This document shows, one piece after another, positions 14,167 through 22,292 of a stretch of DNA of 37,033 bases (position 1 is the first letter of the stretch; each line of letters starts with the position of its first letter). Below the pieces are notes generated by a model, which was not told where the DNA came from, ran no database searches, and saw nothing but the letters and a program-made list of their open reading frames with translations. Location: the IMG/VR virus record IMGVR_UViG_3300045988_059541, positions 1 through 37,033 of that record. One strand, 5' to 3'. This DNA is from a virus. A program made the translations under genes and the position numbers.

Positions 14167-14508
14167 TTATACGAACGGTAATATGTCTTTCAAGTCTTTC
14201 ATAAATCGCTTGGCTTTTTCAATAGTTGAATTATCAGTAAGGTATTCTATGCCTTTTGGTGTAATCTCACATTTATCAAGGTTGTATATATCTATGTTTT
14301 CATCTATATCCTGGTCAATTACTATCCCACTGATATATCCATCATTCAACAGATTCACAATGACATAAGTCCAGTACTTTCTGTTGATCTGCAGATATTT
14401 ACTGTCATGTCTTATGAGTGATGCATCAATATCCTTCCCTTGCTTTAGCTGCATATACAGGTAGGATAGAATCTGATAAACAATTACATGATAATCATCT
14501 CTTGCCAT
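14167..14508 (-). CDS. YjcQ-like winged-helix protein
   Basis: 113 aa. The N-terminal YQILSYLY and C-terminal ITPKGIEYLTDNS...KAK pattern resembles the YjcQ family of the B. subtilis skin element. Confidence 0.45.
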   Translation of the reverse strand: MARDDYHVIVYQILSYLYMQLKQGKDIDASLIRHDSKYLQINRKYWTYVIVNLLNDGYISGIVIDQDIDENIDIYNLDKCEITPKGIEYLTDNSTIEKAKRFMKDLKDILPFV

Positions 14509-14514
14509 ATTTCA

Positions 14515-14874
14515 TTATTCCTTTTTATTCATTTCGTCTCTAAAGGCATCTTCATAATCAAGTTTGCCTGAATTAAGTACAAAATCTCTATCACGCTTCA
14601 TTTCATCCAATTCTTCCTGTGTTTCAACGTGCACCCCTACAACAATCCTGTCTATGTTCTCATAAGTATGATAAAACATATAGTTTACTCCATCGTTAAG
14701 TGTAGGATATAATTCTGCTTCTATAGTTGCTAAAGCTAATGAAACACGCAAAGCAAACATCGGGTCACCTTGAAAAGAAGGCCCTAAGTCATCAAGATGG
14801 AACATCCCTCGTGATTGATCCCCGGTTTCATAATCCGTCCTAAAGTCATGTTTAAAATCAGAATATTCGCTCAT
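14515..14874 (-). CDS. Acidic 119-aa protein, candidate immunity partner of the MuF C-terminal domain
   Basis: Its ATG overlaps the MuF stop (ATGA at 14871-14874), which suggests translational coupling. No family was recognised. Confidence 0.35.
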   Translation of the reverse strand: MSEYSDFKHDFRTDYETGDQSRGMFHLDDLGPSFQGDPMFALRVSLALATIEAELYPTLNDGVNYMFYHTYENIDRIVVGVHVETQEELDEMKRDRDFVLNSGKLDYEDAFRDEMNKKE

Positions 14875-16661
14875 TTTTTCACCCTCTTTTTAATATTGTT
14901 TAATGCATTGGTTTTGTAATTTCTATAATCCCATAATTTGTTATTTTTCCCAGATACAACATTTATTTTGATGTTTGCATCTATAACTTCTTTCTTGTTT
15001 ACAAGTTCATTATAAACTGAATCACAGCTAAAACACATGCTTTTTTGAGATAAGATGAAAATTTCTTGATTTTTTAATTCTCCTTTTAAAATTTTGTCAT
15101 AAATATATTCAAAAAACTTATATTCTGTATCGACATCTCTAGAATATTCGCCCTCGTGTCCCTTATATGGAACTGTTTTTAAATGAGGCGTCAATCTGGC
15201 ATTATCAGGCGATAAAATTAATTTTGATTTTTCTCCTTTATAATTCAAATAATTAGAGTCAGATACTTTTGAAATTTGGCTTGAAGCAATATATATATCA
15301 TCACCAATTTTCATTGAAGCAACATTTCCTCTTCCTGCTTTGGTTGTCATATATTCGTCTTTTGCAGTAAGGGCTTCTTTATCTAGTTCTAGAATCGTTT
15401 CAGCATCGACTTTACCATAGTCTGTTTTATAACGATTCACTGTCCTGAATTTATACTTTAAATCATTCCACTGGCTCTTATTGCCATATTTTACTTCCTG
15501 AAACTTTTCTAATGAACCAGGAACTAACTTGCTTCCAAGAACATTGCAGTAATTTTGGTACTGAATCTTATCTCTAGAATAATTCTTAGCTGACTTCTCA
15601 GCAGTGTTGATTGCTTCAGCACCATGCTTTTCAACCATTCTCTGATACCACTCTTTATAAGTCTCATCTGCTGGAACTTTTATTTTTTTACCTGTAACAG
15701 GGTCTCTAGCAAATCTTTCTAGATTATGCATAGTTTCATCGTCAAGATTCATAATAGTCGTAGAACGACACCATGGGTGCATCGGAGGGGCGTTTACACC
15801 TATCTTCTTATCATTAACCCTGTATACACTTCCGTCCCTCTCACGGCAAATTTGGGACGTTCTAAGGTCTAGTGTTGCAACAAATCTATACTCCTCTATG
15901 CCGTAATCCCTGTAAGCCTGGAAGTGCGCTTCATTGTGAATGTATGATGATTCAGTTCTTACAAGTCTTCTAGCATTGTTTCTACCAGAAAGGAACTGTT
16001 CGTTGATTGAGTCGGTCATTTCCTTCTCTGTCTTTCCTGTAAGTGCTCCTATCATGAACTCCTCTTTTAGTGCATCGGCCACCTTCTGAGTATTGTTCCA
16101 TACTCTTTCGGAATAGTTCTGACCTGACCACTTCTTTTTCAGAATGGTTTCAAGAGCGCCTTCATCAATGGGACCTGTCTGAAGATCTAGGCCACTCATT
16201 CTTGCAGCTTCATATACTGCATGGTGATAACTGCTTTCATAGACCTGTCGCATTGTCTTCCCTATGGCATCTCTTTCTTTTGATGCAACCGCATTGATTA
16301 GCCTGTTTATTGACTTATCAATATCGTCAAGCCTCTTCATACGGTTCTTGTATGCTGGGGCTTCCAATTCTGCTAGCACCTCTCTTTTTTGGGCACCTGT
16401 CTTATTCTTGTATGCTTCAAGCAGTTTTTCGAAATTTCTGCTGTCAGCCTCTGAAAGAAGATTAATAGCCTCGTCTCTTGTTAGATGATGCTTTGAAGCG
16501 AATCTATTGAATATTCCCTCAATCTGCTTGGCAGTGTAGATTGCAGCCTTGCTATAGATTACGCTCAAATCTTTAGAGCAGTCCTCAGCTAACTGCATAT
16601 CCTTGTACATGTTCCTTGCTTCTCGCATCTCCCAGTACTTTATATTTTTGATGTTAGTCAT
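14871..16661 (-). CDS. Minor head protein (SPP1 gp7 / Mu F family) with an extra ~186-aa C-terminal domain (candidate MuF-type polymorphic toxin)
   Basis: MuF signature ATLDLRTSQICRERDG...NAPPMHPWCRST at aa 262-301. A conserved linker (YKEWY, DKIQYQNYCNVLG, SLEKFQEVKY) follows, then an additional domain at aa 411-596. Confidence 0.8.
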   Translation of the reverse strand: MTNIKNIKYWEMREARNMYKDMQLAEDCSKDLSVIYSKAAIYTAKQIEGIFNRFASKHHLTRDEAINLLSEADSRNFEKLLEAYKNKTGAQKREVLAELEAPAYKNRMKRLDDIDKSINRLINAVASKERDAIGKTMRQVYESSYHHAVYEAARMSGLDLQTGPIDEGALETILKKKWSGQNYSERVWNNTQKVADALKEEFMIGALTGKTEKEMTDSINEQFLSGRNNARRLVRTESSYIHNEAHFQAYRDYGIEEYRFVATLDLRTSQICRERDGSVYRVNDKKIGVNAPPMHPWCRSTTIMNLDDETMHNLERFARDPVTGKKIKVPADETYKEWYQRMVEKHGAEAINTAEKSAKNYSRDKIQYQNYCNVLGSKLVPGSLEKFQEVKYGNKSQWNDLKYKFRTVNRYKTDYGKVDAETILELDKEALTAKDEYMTTKAGRGNVASMKIGDDIYIASSQISKVSDSNYLNYKGEKSKLILSPDNARLTPHLKTVPYKGHEGEYSRDVDTEYKFFEYIYDKILKGELKNQEIFILSQKSMCFSCDSVYNELVNKKEVIDANIKINVVSGKNNKLWDYRNYKTNALNNIKKRVKK

Positions 16662-16673
16662 AACAGAACACTA

Positions 16674-18125
16674 TTATTCCTTGTCTTTGTCATCATCATT
16701 ATCATCTTCCTCATGATCATCTGTTTCTTCTTCATCTTCTGGAGGAGTATTCTGATTTTCGGTATCAAATAACTGCTTCTGTGTTTCAAGTGCTTCCTGT
16801 TTTTCTTTTTTGACTTCTTTCATTTCATCATCAACGTTTGAAACAAAGTCAAGGAGTGCAAGAAGTGTCTTAGTTGATACAACACCTTTAAGGTTCGCAA
16901 TGATCTGTGATAATTCAAGACGGTTCTGTGGGAGTCCTCTTGTAAATACAGGCTCAATCATTGACTGATCAGCAGCAATCGCCTTTAGATTGAGGTAAGT
17001 ACAGAACATTCTTATACGCTTCTTAAGCCCTTTCTTGTAATATCTTTCTTTTGTCTTGGTGAGGGTCTCAAGGGCTAGAAGCTTATATTGAATGGCAATG
17101 CCTGAACTGTTGCCAGCAAAGTTTTCATCTGTCAGATTAGGAACATGAGAAAGTGAATAGATATCTTCCTTTATTGAGCGCTTGAGTGTTTCCACAGCAT
17201 TCTCGTCAAATGTTCTAGTCAGATATTCAGAGCGTGCATCAGCAGGAAGTTCCATAACACCATTCTTACGGATAGCCTGGAGCGCTTTTGTTGCTTCTTC
17301 ATCGTCATCACCTAAAAGAGCACCATAGACAACAAGCACTGCGTCAATGAACTGCTCCTTATCGTTGATTCTGTCAGAGCATAATGTATTGTATGCATCA
17401 ATCAGAGAAATCTGCTGTTCATAGTCTCCAATGCAGTCCATGTTGTTTCTATACTCAATGATAGGGTCCTCACCTAAGAAATGTGGGTAAGGCTCACCTA
17501 GTTCTGAAAACTCGCCTTTTTCGAATTCTTCATTGCATGTGATTCCCATTCTTGTGACATAGTTCTCAGTTGTTACTGTTGCGATGATATTGAACCTGTC
17601 AGTAGAATCATCTTTTTCAATCGAATAATAAACGCTGAATAGTTCATGCTGCTCAATTGAGGCATCGAAAACCTTGAATGTTGACAATGGGTCAAGTGTC
17701 TTGGTCATCAGCTTGCTTTCATGCTCACATAAGTAAACATACTCATAAGCGACACCAGCACGTGACATATTGATAGCATTGCATGAATCTGTATCATCTG
17801 TTTCAGCATCAACGAAAGCACCTGTCAGCTTGTCAATATTGCCGTCTTCTGTATTCTTCTTGAATGTGATGGGGTTTGAAAGAAAATAGCCCGTTGCTGT
17901 ATCTGATATATCTTTAGCATGATTTACCATGATCTTATTGTTCGGCTGGTTCTTGAACTTCTTTTCCCTGTTCATGATGGCATGCTTACCAAAGTAATAG
18001 CCGACATTCTTCAATATCTCAGGAGCACGAATACTATAATGCTTACTAATGAGACGAAGTATCATGCTTCTGTCTATGTTTGTCTCGTCGAATTTTTCTC
18101 GTGGAATCGTGAAAGTATAATACAT
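16674..18125 (-). CDS. Portal protein (SPP1 gp6-like)
   Basis: 483 aa, between TerL and MuF. The N-terminal pattern NNKIMVNHAKDISDTATGYFLSNPI is typical of this family, and the C-terminal tail is acidic. Confidence 0.85.
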   Translation of the reverse strand: MYYTFTIPREKFDETNIDRSMILRLISKHYSIRAPEILKNVGYYFGKHAIMNREKKFKNQPNNKIMVNHAKDISDTATGYFLSNPITFKKNTEDGNIDKLTGAFVDAETDDTDSCNAINMSRAGVAYEYVYLCEHESKLMTKTLDPLSTFKVFDASIEQHELFSVYYSIEKDDSTDRFNIIATVTTENYVTRMGITCNEEFEKGEFSELGEPYPHFLGEDPIIEYRNNMDCIGDYEQQISLIDAYNTLCSDRINDKEQFIDAVLVVYGALLGDDDEEATKALQAIRKNGVMELPADARSEYLTRTFDENAVETLKRSIKEDIYSLSHVPNLTDENFAGNSSGIAIQYKLLALETLTKTKERYYKKGLKKRIRMFCTYLNLKAIAADQSMIEPVFTRGLPQNRLELSQIIANLKGVVSTKTLLALLDFVSNVDDEMKEVKKEKQEALETQKQLFDTENQNTPPEDEEETDDHEEDDNDDDKDKE

Positions 18126-18128
18126 CTT

Positions 18129-19403
18129 TTAAAATCTCCTCTTTCCTGCTCTTGCCTTCTTCATAAGGATTTCATTTTCTATAGCATATCTAACCGCATC
18201 TATAGTGTGGTTGTTTCTGTCGGGGAAGTCCCCTCTAAGGTTGCCGTCTCTATCCATTTCAATTTCATAGTCATTGAATTCACGTGCAGCATTGGGGCAT
18301 CTAACAGGATCTATAATTATCTTATCTAGGTCCTGAAGGAACTTTATTCCATTGTCTACACTGTCAGCGCCTTTCTTTGCACCGATGATATTGAGACCTA
18401 ATAACTTGAATTCATTAATAGTTCTTGGTTCGGCCGAATCAGCAGTGACTAGCTTATTGAGTGGGTTAATCTCTTTTATGAGTTTCACGGCCTTGGCATT
18501 TGATAGTCTAGTTCCATATACTTCACCAAAAATAAAAAGACGCCTGCGCGTCTTGTCATAGTTTGCTTTGACATATGCTAATGGGTCACCAGCATAACCA
18601 AAGTCCAATCCGTTTTTTAATCTATCGAATACCTGTATTTCCTCGTCGGTTATCTCACGTATATCAAGGTTTGTGAAAACCTCACTACCTGTACCGGTTA
18701 CCTCTCCCAAATAGTCATGCTTATACTTATCAGGCTTTGTCTCCTTCATGTGGTTGGCTTCAATTAGAAACTGCTCCCCAAGCCACTGAGGTGGTGCCTG
18801 TAAGTAAGTTGTGTGAGAGACATATGTATCATCCCTTTTTACTAGAACTTGCCTATTGCACCAATTACGTTGTGATTCAGGAGGGTTGAAAGAATAAAAG
18901 ACACAATACTCATGTCCACCACGTAAAAGAGACTGATTGATATTGGTTATCTTGTCATAGGTCTCAAATTCGTCACATTCTTCATACCATACGTATTTAA
19001 CATAGCCGACAAACACCTTGATAGATTTCAACTTCTTAGGATTGTCAGCACCTTTGAATATTATCTGTTGTCCTGTCGGTCTGTATGTCATCTGTAACTT
19101 AGATTCAGGTATGTCCCAATCTTCTTCAGCCTTCAGCATGAATATGCCCCACTTAATCTGTTCATAGACTGAACCCCTTAAAGTGTCCTTTACACGTCTG
19201 ATAACAACGGCATTACTCATTACACCACGCTTCGCATCTCTCATAATCCCTAAAGGAATCTCTGTGCCAATGAAAGAAGATTTTAAAGAACCACGTCCAC
19301 CTTTAAGCCAGTAGTGTGTATATGCATTAGTCTTAACATATTTATGAAGATCATAGAACGCTGGGCCTATAATGTCAGAAAGCTTTGCTTTATTCGATGT
19401 CAT
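18129..19403 (-). CDS. terL: Terminase large subunit (PBSX/Terminase_3-like)
   Basis: Walker A-like motif LKGGRGSLKSS, 424 aa, overlapping the TerS stop. Confidence 0.9.
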   Translation of the reverse strand: MTSNKAKLSDIIGPAFYDLHKYVKTNAYTHYWLKGGRGSLKSSFIGTEIPLGIMRDAKRGVMSNAVVIRRVKDTLRGSVYEQIKWGIFMLKAEEDWDIPESKLQMTYRPTGQQIIFKGADNPKKLKSIKVFVGYVKYVWYEECDEFETYDKITNINQSLLRGGHEYCVFYSFNPPESQRNWCNRQVLVKRDDTYVSHTTYLQAPPQWLGEQFLIEANHMKETKPDKYKHDYLGEVTGTGSEVFTNLDIREITDEEIQVFDRLKNGLDFGYAGDPLAYVKANYDKTRRRLFIFGEVYGTRLSNAKAVKLIKEINPLNKLVTADSAEPRTINEFKLLGLNIIGAKKGADSVDNGIKFLQDLDKIIIDPVRCPNAAREFNDYEIEMDRDGNLRGDFPDRNNHTIDAVRYAIENEILMKKARAGKRRF

Positions 19404-19764
19404 CTATAATTACTATCTGTCCATTTGACTTGATATCAAGACTGCTGCCAGGCTTATTGCCACTCAAGTCTCTAATGAATTCCGCTGCCTTAGTGTCGCC
19501 TTTCATCGCCTTTTGAACCTGTTTAATGAGTATTGCATCCTGTACAGTCACATTCTTGCCATTCAATGCAGCAAAGTTCTTTATTGTGTCCACATCGGCT
19601 ATCTTACCGGATTTAAGAGACATGGAAAGAAGCGATGCAAGATTATCTTTCATTGCCTTCTTTTCTCTTCTTGCCTTGACAGATGCAAGTCCGCCTTTTC
19701 GGCCGTTCTCTCTTCTTTCTTCTGGTGTCATGTTTGCGAACTCACTTTTTGCCATTATCATCAC
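19390..19764 (-). CDS. terS: Terminase small subunit
   Basis: ~120 aa with a basic N-terminus (RRENGRKGGLASVKARREKK), directly upstream of and overlapping TerL. The real start is probably the third ATG (19755), after GGGGTGA. Confidence 0.6.
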   Translation of the reverse strand: MMIMAKSEFANMTPEERRENGRKGGLASVKARREKKAMKDNLASLLSMSLKSGKIADVDTIKNFAALNGKNVTVQDAILIKQVQKAMKGDTKAAEFIRDLSGNKPGSSLDIKSNGQIVIIDDIE

Positions 19765-19780
19765 CCCTTTATAAACACTA

Positions 19781-19813
19781 AAAAAAGAGCTAAGCGATTA
19801 TGTTTAGCTCTTT
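19781..19813 (-). terminator. Intrinsic terminator (minus orientation, weaker in plus)
   Basis: AAAGAGCTAA (19784-93) pairs perfectly with TTAGCTCTTT (19804-13) across a 10-nt loop. On the minus strand the stem runs into a 7-U tract. Confidence 0.6.
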
Positions 19814-19819
19814 TAAAAA

Positions 19820-20062
19820 CTAGAAATCAATTTCTTTTGCATCATCAAGTGTAATACCACACTGGTTCATATATCTCCAATAGTTCAACGCTTTGCCATC
19901 ACTTTTTCTGATAACGATAGGAATTCTTCCAGCATAAATATTATCTCGATCATTGAAAATATAACCACCTTCTGTTTCAAACGCTTCATTGATATTGGCG
20001 CCGAATTCTCCTAATGCCTCCAATGCAATTTCTTTTGCCTTTTCATAAGTAACCATCTTCAT
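19820..20062 (-). CDS. 80-aa protein, candidate immunity partner (YrhB/Imm35-like pattern)
   Basis: It starts ~10 nt after the toxin-like gene. The pattern VTYEKAKEIALEAL...EGGYIF...GRIPIVIRKSDGK recalls small alpha+beta immunity proteins (resemblance from memory only). Confidence 0.35.
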   Translation of the reverse strand: MKMVTYEKAKEIALEALGEFGANINEAFETEGGYIFNDRDNIYAGRIPIVIRKSDGKALNYWRYMNQCGITLDDAKEIDF

Positions 20063-20072
20063 TCTCCTTTAG

Positions 20073-20723
20073 TTATTTTAGTAATTTAACGCTTTCACGC
20101 GCTCGGTCAGAAATTCTCAAATTATCGGTACGAGTTAGATAGATATGTCCAGTTTCTCTTTTACTAAGCATTCCGAAAATATTCTTACTAGTATACTTAG
20201 TCCCTGTCTGTGCATCGACATACCTAATTTTTCCGTTTACGTTCTCACAGTTGAATACATGACCAGGAATCTGAATAATTCCTCGTGCGCCCTTTCCCCA
20301 GCTATGCATCTGTTTTTCAACTTTATTTTGTGCTGCCTTTTGAGTTGACGCGCCAACCTTAATAGGTTGAGCGTGTCTAAATGCTTTTTGCCATATACCT
20401 CTACCCTTAAGGGTACCATACGGTAATCTATCTCCTTTATAAGTAGGAAGAGCAGTTACATTATAACCTCGTCTTCTCAACTCATAAGCGATAACACAAC
20501 GCTGACAGTTTTCAGAGAATTCGGAATACTCATAGCTATGGTTAGGATTAACATTCTTCAATGCATTATCAATGCTATAAGGTTTTCCTTTCTTTCCGAT
20601 TGATTTTTTTAGTTCTCCAATACTTGGGATTCTATCGCCAATTCCAAAAGGTGAGAATTTTTCCTTTCCTTCTCCGCCTTTTGGTCTTTTATCACTGTCC
20701 CAACTAGAACCTCTACCACCCAT
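20073..20723 (-). CDS. Papain-fold toxin-like protein (Tox-PL1 / glutamine-deamidase-like Cys-His-Asp)
   Basis: 216 aa with a good RBS and a Gly-rich disordered N-terminus (MGGRGSSWDSDKRPKGGEGK). Motifs are NPNHSYEYSEFSENC73QRCVIAYELRRRGYNV, then PGH155VFNCENVNGKIRYVD170AQTG. Confidence 0.5.
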   Translation of the reverse strand: MGGRGSSWDSDKRPKGGEGKEKFSPFGIGDRIPSIGELKKSIGKKGKPYSIDNALKNVNPNHSYEYSEFSENCQRCVIAYELRRRGYNVTALPTYKGDRLPYGTLKGRGIWQKAFRHAQPIKVGASTQKAAQNKVEKQMHSWGKGARGIIQIPGHVFNCENVNGKIRYVDAQTGTKYTSKNIFGMLSKRETGHIYLTRTDNLRISDRARESVKLLK

Positions 20724-20751: not shown

Positions 20752-21801
20752 TTATATATTTTTTAAGTTTTTCATTTTTTCTGTCACATGATTGTCATAG
20801 TATTTCACATTAGCGCCCTTGAAGTCATAGCCAATGTCACCACCATAGACAAGCACATTCTTAGGCTTCAGCCTCTTCATGGCTTCATCCATGCCCTGTG
20901 TCCATATCTTTGTGGCTTCCTTGCTGCGCTTAACTCCAATAGTAGAAACTGAAATTGTACTGTTAGAAGGAATACCATCAAAACAAAAAGTAAATGTTTC
21001 TGGTTCAGCCCATGATACAGTAGGAATCACTCTAAGCCCTCTATCCTGATAGATCTGACCAATTAAACGGCTTCTGTATACATTCCATATTTTCATGGCC
21101 ATAGGCATATCCATGTAAAGAGAAAAGTCAGGAGTAAGAATACAGTCAAACTGCGCAAGCTTATCAACATACATCTGAGGAGATGCCCAAATTCTTTCAA
21201 ATTGATAGTCATCAATATAAAAATGAACACCTGATTCATATCTATTAGAATTCAATACATAATTGAAACCAACAAGATCATCCGGAACATAGTCAATTCT
21301 TTCAAGTGTAGGCATCTGATAGAATCCTATTGCTCTAAGTTCATCATATTCATCAAGGTTATATGCATTTCCTGTTCTTTCTCTCTCGTTTGACTTTTCG
21401 GAATCGTCTTCTTCAGGTTCTTCAAATTCAATTGACTCAAACCCAAATGAATCCATGTCTATATTGATAATGTCATCAAGTTCACCGCTTAGGATTTCAA
21501 AATCCCATTCAGCTTTCTCTGATACCTTGTTATCTGCTAGTCTAAATGCCTTAATCTGCTCGTCTGAGAGGTCATCGGCTACTATGCATGGAACTGTCTC
21601 AAGTCCTAGCTTTAGCGCTGCTTTAAACCTAGTATGACCGCATACGATGATATTATTCCTATCAACAACTATAGGAACTTTAAAACCAAACTCCTTGATG
21701 CTGTTCATCACCATTGGAACGGCTTCATCATTCCTTCTAGGATTGCGACTATAAGGAATTAGATCAGCAATAGGCTTCTGCGTTATCTTGATGTCATTCA
21801 T
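20752..21801 (-). CDS. ParB-like N-terminal (nuclease/CTPase-fold) domain fused to a DUF4417-like domain
   Basis: The N-terminal IADLIPYSRNPRRNDEAVPMVMNSIKEFGFKVPIVVD...CGHTRFKAA matches the ParB/Srx pattern. The C-terminal half (FYIDDYQFERIW...) resembles DUF4417. Confidence 0.7.
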   Translation of the reverse strand: MNDIKITQKPIADLIPYSRNPRRNDEAVPMVMNSIKEFGFKVPIVVDRNNIIVCGHTRFKAALKLGLETVPCIVADDLSDEQIKAFRLADNKVSEKAEWDFEILSGELDDIINIDMDSFGFESIEFEEPEEDDSEKSNERERTGNAYNLDEYDELRAIGFYQMPTLERIDYVPDDLVGFNYVLNSNRYESGVHFYIDDYQFERIWASPQMYVDKLAQFDCILTPDFSLYMDMPMAMKIWNVYRSRLIGQIYQDRGLRVIPTVSWAEPETFTFCFDGIPSNSTISVSTIGVKRSKEATKIWTQGMDEAMKRLKPKNVLVYGGDIGYDFKGANVKYYDNHVTEKMKNLKNI

Positions 21802-21823: not shown

Positions 21824-21848
21824 AAAAAAAGAGGCTGTATGTGCCTCT
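21824..21848 (-). terminator. Intrinsic terminator (minus orientation) in the leader of the ParB-like gene
   Basis: The minus strand reads AGAGGC-acataca-GCCTCT followed by TTTTTTT, ~20 nt before the ParB RBS. Confidence 0.55.
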
Positions 21849-21926: not shown

Positions 21927-22292
21927 TCACATAATAACTGATAATTCTTTAACTGCATCGAGTATATACGTTCTTACTGTTGCTGGAGAATAGTCCATAA
22001 TTTCAGCAATATCATATACACTCAAACACTCTATATATCGATAAAACAGTATGTTTCTATATGTCATACTGCTCAATCTTTCGATAGAATCCTTTATTTC
22101 TTGCATCTGAGACAAGTATTCATCTTTCATGATGATGTAATCATTTTGAGTTTTAGGCTCGCCATAAGAACATCTTTGAGCATCGTCATATCTGATTGAT
22201 TTAACATTAATCATTTTATTGTTGATATACTCTACCCTGTTAGCCATGCTTTTATATGATTTTAGAAATGTTCTTGTCTCGTCAATTGTCAT
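21927..22292 (-). CDS. Late-gene transcriptional activator, sigma-70 region-4-like (RinA/ArpU/DUF1492 class)
   Basis: 121 aa. The C-terminal helix-turn-helix (HTH) LSVYDIAEIMDYSPATVRTYILDAVKEL is sigma-region-4-like. It sits at the early/late boundary upstream of the packaging genes. Confidence 0.55.
   Translation of the reverse strand: MTIDETRTFLKSYKSMANRVEYINNKMINVKSIRYDDAQRCSYGEPKTQNDYIIMKDEYLSQMQEIKDSIERLSSMTYRNILFYRYIECLSVYDIAEIMDYSPATVRTYILDAVKELSVIM

Follow-up and report, generated by a model that had tools for sequence, protein, structure and literature searches.

A papain-fold gene and its neighbor lie between ParB_N-DUF4417 and the terminase genes

We analyzed a pair of genes upstream of the terminase genes in the viral DNA stretch IMGVR_UViG_3300045988_059541 (positions 1 to 37,033 of this IMG/VR record; the whole stretch of 37,033 nucleotides is hereafter the window). 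The first gene (20073-20723, minus strand) encodes a 216-amino-acid (aa) protein with a match to the Pfam family PF15644 (E = 7.9e-11), here called PL1. The second (19820-20062, minus strand) is an 80-aa open reading frame (ORF), p80, for a small alpha+beta protein without a leader peptide, here called the partner. Both ORFs, and the motifs quoted from them, had been reported in a first-pass annotation made from the sequence alone, and all of them were found on the minus strand at the positions given there. The PL1 translation opens MGGRGSSWDSDKRPKGGEGKEKF. Its codons 1-7 (20703-20723, minus strand) specify a leader, MGGRGSS, that is conserved in most free-standing homologues, and the ~30 residues that follow vary; in the window these form a Gly/Lys-rich linker that runs to approximately residue 37 (20613-20702, minus strand) and is modeled with low confidence. 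Further on, the motif order is NPNHSYEYSEFSENC73QRCVIAYELRRRGYNV...GH155VFN...VD170AQTG, and the catalytic codons can be read in the DNA as Cys73 at 20505-20507 (tgt), His155 at 20259-20261 (cat) and Asp170 at 20214-20216 (gat).

All genes in the packaging region of the window lie on the minus strand. In transcription order, they begin with a sigma-70-region-4/DUF1492 late regulator (21927-22292), followed by a gene for a ParB_N-DUF4417 protein (20752-21801; Pfam DUF4417, E = 2.1e-75; ParB_N, E = 4e-9), then by PL1 and the partner. The gene for the small terminase subunit, TerS (19390-19764; phrog_2412, E = 2.9e-23), marks the downstream boundary of what we describe below as a cargo site, and it overlaps the start of the gene for the large subunit, TerL (18129-19403, Terminase_3 type). 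Between the partner stop codon and terS lies a weak terminator-like element (19777-19814, minus strand), a hairpin with an 11-bp stem (-11.9 kcal/mol) followed by UUUUUUU, with a z-score of only -1.35. A second hairpin with a U-run lies at 21830-21848 (minus strand), so that two such signals, both weak, bracket the ParB_N-DUF4417, PL1 and partner genes, which may form a transcription unit of their own. Putative terminators and promoters are annotated at the equivalent positions in Streptococcus phage MM1.

An integrase, a CI-like repressor and an amidase endolysin are encoded elsewhere in the window, and because of these genes we identify it as a temperate siphophage or prophage; its G+C content is ~38%. 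A megablast search of the 3-kb region against GenBank phages returned no match, and a genome scan pointed to Clostridia and Coriobacteriia of the gut, the highest identity being 47%.

PL1 is predicted to be a Tox-PL1 enzyme with intact catalytic residues

PL1 scored 43.5 bits against the Pfam Gln_amidase or "Papain fold toxin 1" model (PF15644), whose gathering cutoff is 24.1, and residues 72-174 of the protein aligned with positions 2-113 of the 114-position profile. A search of 5.8 billion proteins retrieved 299 homologues, nearly all of them free-standing, 205-265 aa long and aligned end to end; among the matches listed, nearly all of 120 homologues carried PF15644. N72, C73, Q74, R75, H155 and Q172 were invariant in an alignment of homologues with 44-89% identity, and position 170 was Asp or Glu in 32/32. 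These residues correspond to the NC...H...DxQ signature (NC-H-DxQ) of the Tox-PL1 family (Zhang et al., 2012, PMC3482391).

The AlphaFold2 (AF2) model of PL1 had a predicted local distance difference test score (pLDDT) of 85.6 and a predicted template modeling score of 0.87, with pLDDT at 50-75 across residues 1-40. In the model, C73 is the first residue of helix 73-84, H155 the first of strand 155-162 and D170 the last of strand 165-170, which is the papain-type arrangement of a Cys at a helix N-terminus with His and Asp on consecutive strands. When the model was compared with the PDB by Foldseek, the best match was the glutamine deamidase OspI, and this match was weak (E = 0.02; template modeling score, TM, 0.38-0.42); the next neighbors were cysteine-protease toxin domains or effectors and deubiquitinase-type folds. 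Neighbors in BFVD reached E values down to 3.6e-23, the top one being a free-standing gut-virome "Papain fold toxin 1" (TM 0.86) and subsequent ones actinophage MuF or "capsid maturation protease" fusion proteins. Sequence searches of the PDB with the PL1 and partner profiles gave only noise (DegP and designed repeat proteins).

The profile score above cutoff, the residues retained in 32/32 homologues and the modeled arrangement together indicate that the 216-aa protein is a Tox-PL1/Gln_amidase papain-fold enzyme with its catalytic Cys-His-Asp residues intact, as first proposed; the conservation of these residues, which had been named as a check on that proposal, was borne out. On sequence grounds, the reaction could equally be proteolysis, deamidation of glutamine or a transglutaminase-like transamidation.

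Free-standing PL1 homologues number in the hundreds in phages of gut Clostridia and Coriobacteriia. We also observed a clade of 188-aa PL1 proteins (loci L057-L069 and L108; for example, L058:5962-6528) with an MGGRGGS leader and a ParB_N-DUF4417 gene directly upstream; ORFs of 64-85 aa are located 30-93 nt downstream of these genes.

A small protein of an unannotated family accompanies PL1

The partner ORF (20062->19820) begins 10 nt past the PL1 stop codon. A ribosome-binding site (RBS), AAGGAG, lies 1 nt before its first ATG and 7 nt before a second ATG at 20056, and its homologues are mostly 73-78 aa long and start M-x-T-Y-E-E-A. Because of the RBS spacing and the lengths and starts of the homologues, the true start is probably the second ATG, and the product a protein of 78 aa (MVTYEKAK...). 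The 80-aa ORF noted earlier is thus present, but the protein made from it is more likely two residues shorter.

We searched iteratively for partner homologues across the ORFs of 80 IMG/VR loci. One was found -7 to +33 nt downstream of 55 of the 57 free-standing PL1 genes in the clade of 194-243 aa (L001-L056), and both exceptions were second tandem PL1 copies (in L020 and L043). Three loci have two tandem PL1 paralogues at the site; both copies are partnered in L037, and only one in L020 and L043. A further homologue followed a 685-aa MuF-PL1 fusion. The same order of PL1 and partner recurred in bacterial genome contigs and after several more MuF-PL1 fusions, and the cultured Acutalibacter phage Fontainebleau has a partner homologue after its MuF-PL1 gene (E = 1e-12). 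A profile search of 1.84 billion cluster representatives extended the family to 689 members, mostly of 72-90 aa. Some family members (P0152-P0155) are 150-220 aa long with two tandem copies of the domain, and one scanned member carries a ParB_N domain.

Pairwise distances among PL1 proteins and among their partners were correlated (r = 0.84), also when the ParB neighbor was controlled for (partial r = 0.70). The tight linkage first seen in the window holds across loci, and the comparative data indicate that the small ORF is an obligate partner of PL1 and a member of an unannotated family. That a Tox-PL1 enzyme is encoded here together with a cognate partner is, in our judgment, highly probable. 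Such pairs are common in gut phages, although they had not been studied before.

The AF2 model of the partner (pLDDT 87.6) is a small alpha-beta4-alpha-beta protein whose fold is not ubiquitin-like. Foldseek against the PDB gave nothing below E = 0.3 and only faint PepSY-like matches (YpeB and CD1622). The partner of the window had zero Pfam matches at E <= 1, and Pfam scans of 39 and a further 68 family members gave zero significant matches. We rejected the initial assignment of the small ORF to the Imm35 (PF15567)/YrhB type of immunity protein: 2/39 homologues had a sub-threshold match (E = 0.017), none of 68 reached E <= 0.01, and the structural comparison did not connect the partner with this family. 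In position and in co-occurrence with PL1, the small ORF resembles a cognate immunity gene, and on this basis we consider it fairly likely that the partner inhibits PL1.

The site upstream of terS holds exchangeable cargo

To follow the locus in related phages, we fetched 80 phages by their TerL (83-100% identity), of which ~40 had the same ParB_N-DUF4417 and TerS genes. In those ~40, TerL was 96-100% and the portal protein 97-100% identical, and TerS remained 97-100% identical among relatives with different genes at the site. PL1 and the partner occupied the site in four phages; ~20 carried c0 and c1 instead (c0, 130-134 aa; c1, 103-165 aa, phrog_9479), eight carried c2 (219-260 aa, with an HNHPSG JAB/RadC-like motif, phrog_5057), two carried c6 (a 205-aa HEFGH, that is HExxH, zincin with a weak Tox-MPTase2 match), one carried c7 (135 aa), and in two there was nothing between the flanking genes. 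The swapping for which a survey had been recommended is thus evident, with unrelated cargo in most phages. The pair is not the singular oddity that it had seemed in the window but one allele of a polymorphic cargo site. We also observed arrays of up to three different leader-bearing genes (L026 and L047), so that the site can stack cargo.

Four close relatives were 97-100% identical to the window phage in the amino acid sequences of ParB, TerS, TerL and portal, and their PL1 proteins were 100%, 89%, 88% or 64% identical to that of the window; the 88%-identical PL1 allele of L002/L003 is accompanied by an unchanged partner. In L005, PL1 (64%) and the partner (47%) lie between flanks that are 98-100% identical, and the two genes have been replaced as a unit. 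Synonymous divergence (dS) in the cassette was 0.41 in L002 and L003 and ~2 in L005, against 0.1-0.24 in the flanks, and the ratio of nonsynonymous to synonymous divergence (dN/dS) of PL1 was 0.13-0.16. Because dS is raised in the cassette relative to its flanks, the PL1 cassettes are imported alleles, and they are under purifying selection; positive selection on PL1 was not supported.

Most PL1 loci have a ParB_N-DUF4417 gene on the upstream side. Among the TerL relatives, leader cargo (see below) and ParB_N-DUF4417 were both present in 38, both absent in 27, and separate only where ParB_N-DUF4417 occurred by itself (2; cargo only, 0), a co-occurrence that is confounded by linkage since the ParB-less phages also have a different TerS.

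Unrelated cargo proteins share an MGGRG leader

Nearly all cargo at the site opens with an MGGRGASS-type peptide or with variants such as MAKGSRGGKR, and the PL1 partner never carries the MGGRG motif. Across 231 loci, 138 RBS-preceded ORFs begin with the leader motif; 134 of these follow a ParB_N-DUF4417 gene, and where a terminase could be identified in the locus (101 ORFs), all but one (100) precede it. They fall into ~16 families that phmmer does not link. Synonymous codons vary freely at G2, G3, R4 and G5, so selection on the leader acts at the level of the peptide, not the DNA; a nucleotide-level origin, as an RBS-like sequence or a recombination anchor, is thereby ruled out. The motif was ~3-fold over-represented relative to a reversed-sequence control, and the remaining excess was the TerL Walker A loop. 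In a six-frame translation of the window, G[GS]RG[GAS] occurs only twice, once where PL1 begins and once in the P-loop of TerL. That loop, KGGRGSLKS (19277-19303, minus strand; TerL residues ~34-42), is close to the leader MGGRGSS, a likeness that may be a coincidence of Gly-rich loops or mimicry.

The leader reaches well-studied phages. Gene 0033 of the Streptococcus agalactiae phage Javan23 (MGGRGASSGISEKRK...), a member of the c1 family, carries it directly after the ParB_N-DUF4417 gene, and in the same position the pneumococcal phage MM1 has ORF29 (...TLGGGRGANF...IHNHPNGS...). In such c2 proteins (L149:3338-4120, plus strand; MM1 ORF29, L229:4576-5322, plus strand), GGRGA is internal, behind a conserved ~65-aa extension that ends ...L(K/G)GG and that reaches into the end of the ParB_N-DUF4417 gene; in other c2 members, MGGRGG is itself the N-terminus (L047:2928-3512). 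Because the motif is internal in some c2 members and N-terminal in others, GG|RG is a possible processing site. A subset of the free-standing PL1 proteins (P0042, P0054, P0067 and P0078) has MGNC.., MGSC.. or MC..SS in place of MGGRG, with the same Gly-rich linker after it. These N-termini resemble eukaryotic N-myristoylation or palmitoylation motifs, for which we know of no meaning in bacteria.

Our literature search found no description of the MGGRG leader, of free-standing phage PL1 or of a DUF4417 function. The occurrence of one peptide on ~16 unrelated proteins at one site lends comparative support to the earlier suggestion that the Gly-rich N-terminus is a signal, and the leader and linker are probably a common targeting signal. 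That this signal mediates encapsidation is a tentative reading, to which we assign clearly less than an even chance. As in a polymorphic toxin system, a constant N-terminal module is combined with exchanged C-terminal bodies, the module here being a short peptide only, with a presumed role in trafficking.

The leader also bears on whether the genes form a classical interbacterial toxin-immunity pair, in which PL1 released by lysis would poison competitors, the partner would protect lysogens, and nothing would be packaged. The order of a toxin gene followed by an immunity gene, the exchange of the two as a cassette and the precedent of the prophage toxin Bxa with its adjacent immunity proteins are in keeping with such a pair. 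However, PL1 has no secretion signal and no receptor-binding or translocation domain, only the 7-residue leader and the disordered linker, and the partner gene follows the late regulator among the late genes, a position from which expression in lysogens is not expected. An identical leader on cargo that is not toxin-like further favors a role in trafficking, and we regard a purely lysis-released toxin as improbable.

The same domain is fused to virion proteins in other phages

In distant relatives from IMG/VR, bacterial genomes and cultured phages, the PL1 domain forms the very C-terminal end of Phage_Mu_F, Phage_min_cap2 and VG15 proteins. Homology to these fusions spans PL1 residues ~38-213 and includes a C-terminal R-T-D-N-L motif beyond the Pfam model. 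Using tblastn, we found the domain in 160 cultured phage records, in genes flanked by those for portal and scaffold. "Capsid maturation protease (and MuF-like fusion protein)" is their annotation in phages of Arthrobacter, Mycobacterium, Gordonia and Microbacterium. That Tox-PL1 can be joined to MuF has been noted before (Zhang et al., 2012, PMC3482391). For the MuF "glutamine deaminase" toxins of Bacteroidales, a small ORF is always adjacent, and its product was placed over the toxin active site in a complex predicted by AlphaFold3 (Alexei et al., 2024, PMC11699363). Small ORFs after the actinophage MuF-PL1 genes (Bumble gp5 and Nergal gp8) show a similar pattern, but their similarity to the partner was not significant, and no partner-like ORF was found downstream in the Bacteroides Mu-like phage jmh47_hp. 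In Fontainebleau, MuF-PL1 and the partner homologue are followed by a 98-aa "peptidase" (L146:6825-7121) with the look of a Prp-type (ribosomal-processing cysteine) protease.

The annotation in the 160 records, together with the processing role suggested for MuF-linked Tox-PL1 (Zhang et al., 2012, PMC3482391), raises the possibility that PL1 is a prohead protease for capsid maturation or processing, with the partner as its regulator. We found no experimental basis for the actinophage name in the literature, and these annotations are bioinformatic only. The head module of the window is SPP1-like with a separate scaffold. To our knowledge, phages with SPP1-like heads need no prohead protease. 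Phages with near-identical TerL and portal and the same head module mostly lack PL1, some of them having an empty site, and since these siblings share the head genes, PL1 is dispensable for head assembly in this lineage. With PL1 in only 4 of ~40 siblings, an essential head-maturation protease is ruled out, and we consider a head protease of any kind extremely unlikely. Because the domain is fused to head-internal MuF proteins elsewhere, the virion is by a Rosetta-stone argument the most plausible destination of PL1.

These fusions also bear on a role confined to the producing cell, where PL1 would act late, in host takeover or anti-defense (for instance by deamidating or removing a host factor), or where the site would hold defense or abortive-infection cassettes, the partner being a regulator, a chaperone or a substrate. 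The site does behave as a hot-spot for variable accessory genes, its cargo includes three peptidase-like folds (papain, JAB-like and zincin), and the weak Foldseek neighbors of PL1 include deubiquitinase-type enzymes and OspI. PADLOC defense models, however, gave no significant match (a marginal one to PDC-S01, E = 8e-4), a shared N-terminal peptide is not a feature of defense hot-spots, the same domain is joined to virion-internal proteins in other phages, and an obligate stoichiometric partner would be superfluous for an enzyme whose place of action is the producing cell. A role of this kind is unlikely, although it deserves more weight than a lysis-released toxin or a head protease.

The MuF protein of the window is a second, independent cargo position

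As the first-pass annotation had recognized, PL1 is free-standing and not adjacent to MuF. It has no MuF domain, and the MuF protein is encoded by a separate gene 3.4 kb away. Downstream of TerL on the minus strand are genes for an SPP1-type portal protein (16674-18125) and for a 596-aa MuF protein (14871-16661; Phage_Mu_F, E = 4.3e-17). The latter ends in a Toxin-deaminase domain (PF14424, E = 2e-12), so that the phage also carries a MuF toxin module, as had been claimed. A 119-aa ORF (14515-14874) overlaps the MuF-deaminase stop codon by 4 nt; it has no Pfam match and is likely the immunity protein for the deaminase. A gene for a YjcQ-family protein (14167-14508) comes next, and the scaffold and capsid protein genes follow it.

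In phages with 96-100% identical TerL and portal (L149-L197), MuF lengths were 366, 460, 523, 526, 533, 585, 596, 624 and 632 aa, and both the length and the C-terminus varied independently of the occupant of the site upstream of terS. The MuF C-terminus is therefore a second, independent polymorphic cargo position in this lineage.

This independence bears on whether PL1 could be a releasing peptidase that acts in trans, during assembly or after ejection, and frees the toxin domain of the MuF-deaminase or of other cargo. A likely function as releasing peptidases has been noted for part of the Tox-PL1 domains (Zhang et al., 2012, PMC3482391), and the phage of the window does have a MuF-toxin fusion. 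However, PL1 and its partner co-occur with a short, toxin-less MuF of 313 aa (L023, L032, L035 and L039-41), the 596-aa MuF-deaminase is found alike with c2, c0 and c1, or PL1 cargo, and in fusions PL1 is at the extreme C-terminus, the position of a toxin, not internal. With MuF form and PL1 presence varying independently, we rejected a dedicated releasing peptidase for the MuF toxin, and a broader releasing role is very unlikely.

A model for PL1 as a packaged effector

We favor, at about even probability, a model in which PL1 is a late effector enzyme that is held inactive by its partner and delivered with the virion as one of several interchangeable, tagged cargo proteins. PL1 would be made late, together with the packaging genes, and the ~78-aa partner would bind it and keep the enzyme harmless in the producing cell, as an "immunity" protein does. 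The leader and disordered linker would bring cargo to its destination, which could be the procapsid, DNA that is undergoing packaging or the ParB_N-DUF4417 protein. Leaving its inhibitor behind, PL1 would exit with the virion and find its target among the proteins of the next cell infected. Recombination has placed many unrelated leader-bearing proteins at the site between ParB_N-DUF4417 and terS. The proposed delivery parallels the logic of the MuF-fused versions of the same domain.

Several observations weigh against this model. No partner homologue was detectable for the 188-aa PL1 clade, and the c2 and c6 cargo has no adjacent leaderless small ORF; with some cargo lacking a partner, the site cannot be described as a uniform toxin-immunity locus. 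Known immunity and inhibitor families show no detectable similarity to the partner, and we infer its inhibition of PL1 from position and co-variation only. The dN/dS values show purifying selection, and the diversity at the site comes from recombination, not from detectable positive selection. The PL1 gene lies outside the head module proper, and the terminator-like hairpin separates its block from terS. Finally, the leader could instead serve in RGG-like nucleic-acid binding, as a processing site, or as a signal for translation or stability.

A wider form of the packaged-effector model, to which we give a low probability, treats MGGRG(A/S)S as the tag of a previously undescribed, MuF-independent cargo-delivery system in phages of Firmicutes and Actinobacteria, MM1 and prophages of group B streptococci among them, with the linked ParB_N-DUF4417 protein as the loader or modifier that recognizes it, for instance as a tether that holds cargo to the DNA during packaging. 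The tag would then export papain-like, JAB-like, zincin-like and other effectors, PL1 being the member that needs a co-encoded inhibitor.

Should the tag prove to be a targeting signal, it would account for the passage of small effectors to the next host with no structural protein attached, it would offer a simple handle for loading foreign proteins into virions, and it would give a role to many "hypothetical" genes beside ParB_N-DUF4417 in gut, streptococcal and other phages. Otherwise, what is left is a common, unstudied accessory pair of toxin-antitoxin-like genes, of modest interest.

Relation to known systems

The enzyme family, the connection that MuF gives it to phage heads and the order of a toxin gene followed by a small ORF were already known, and free-standing copies exist in databases under automatic names. 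What appears to be new is a cargo site upstream of terS, beside ParB_N-DUF4417, with a common MGGRG tag that extends to well-known streptococcal phages.

Phage-borne polymorphic toxins have so far been known as MuF fusions, and here the same domain and its partner are split off and free-standing. The MuF polymorphic toxins (Zhang et al., 2012, PMC3482391; Jamet et al., 2017, PMC5576092; Alexei et al., 2024, PMC11699363) have the same catalytic domain and, in several cases, the same partner family, and like the PL1 pair they are encoded by temperate phages near packaging and head genes. In them, the toxin domain shares its polypeptide with an N-terminal MuF domain (PF04233 or related). PL1 lacks such a domain and has only the MGGRG leader and disordered linker; moreover, its gene lies upstream of terS beside ParB_N-DUF4417 rather than after the portal gene, and it is one of several alternative cargo proteins with a common leader.

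Imm35 (PF15567), the immunity family that Zhang et al. (2012, PMC3482391) list for Tox-PL1 and call a "possible protease inhibitor", is likewise a small alpha+beta protein encoded directly after Tox-PL1. The PL1 partner, however, belongs to a separate, unannotated family with no significant profile match to it.

OspI, the Shigella type III secretion effector that deamidates a glutamine of Ubc13 (PDB 3B21), is like PL1 a papain-like Cys-His-Asp enzyme. Its triad is C62, H145 and D160, a spacing nearly identical to that of C73, H155 and D170 in PL1. The structural match between the two is weak, and PL1 has no sequence-level relation to any PDB entry; the Pfam Gln_amidase grouping that contains PL1 also holds NTAQ1-type amidases.

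The T4 internal proteins IPI-III and Alt have an N-terminal capsid-targeting sequence. They and other packaged early effectors (PMC5512222) embody the concept that we propose for PL1, in which a tag or a head fusion sends effectors into the capsid to be injected along with the DNA, and the domain repertoire of polyvalent proteins overlaps with the one seen here in ParB-like domains, metallopeptidases and MuF (Iyer et al., 2017, PMC5512222). The leader proteins have no sequence similarity to T4 internal or polyvalent proteins and are small, single-domain products of a swap site, in contrast to the giant multidomain polyvalent proteins.

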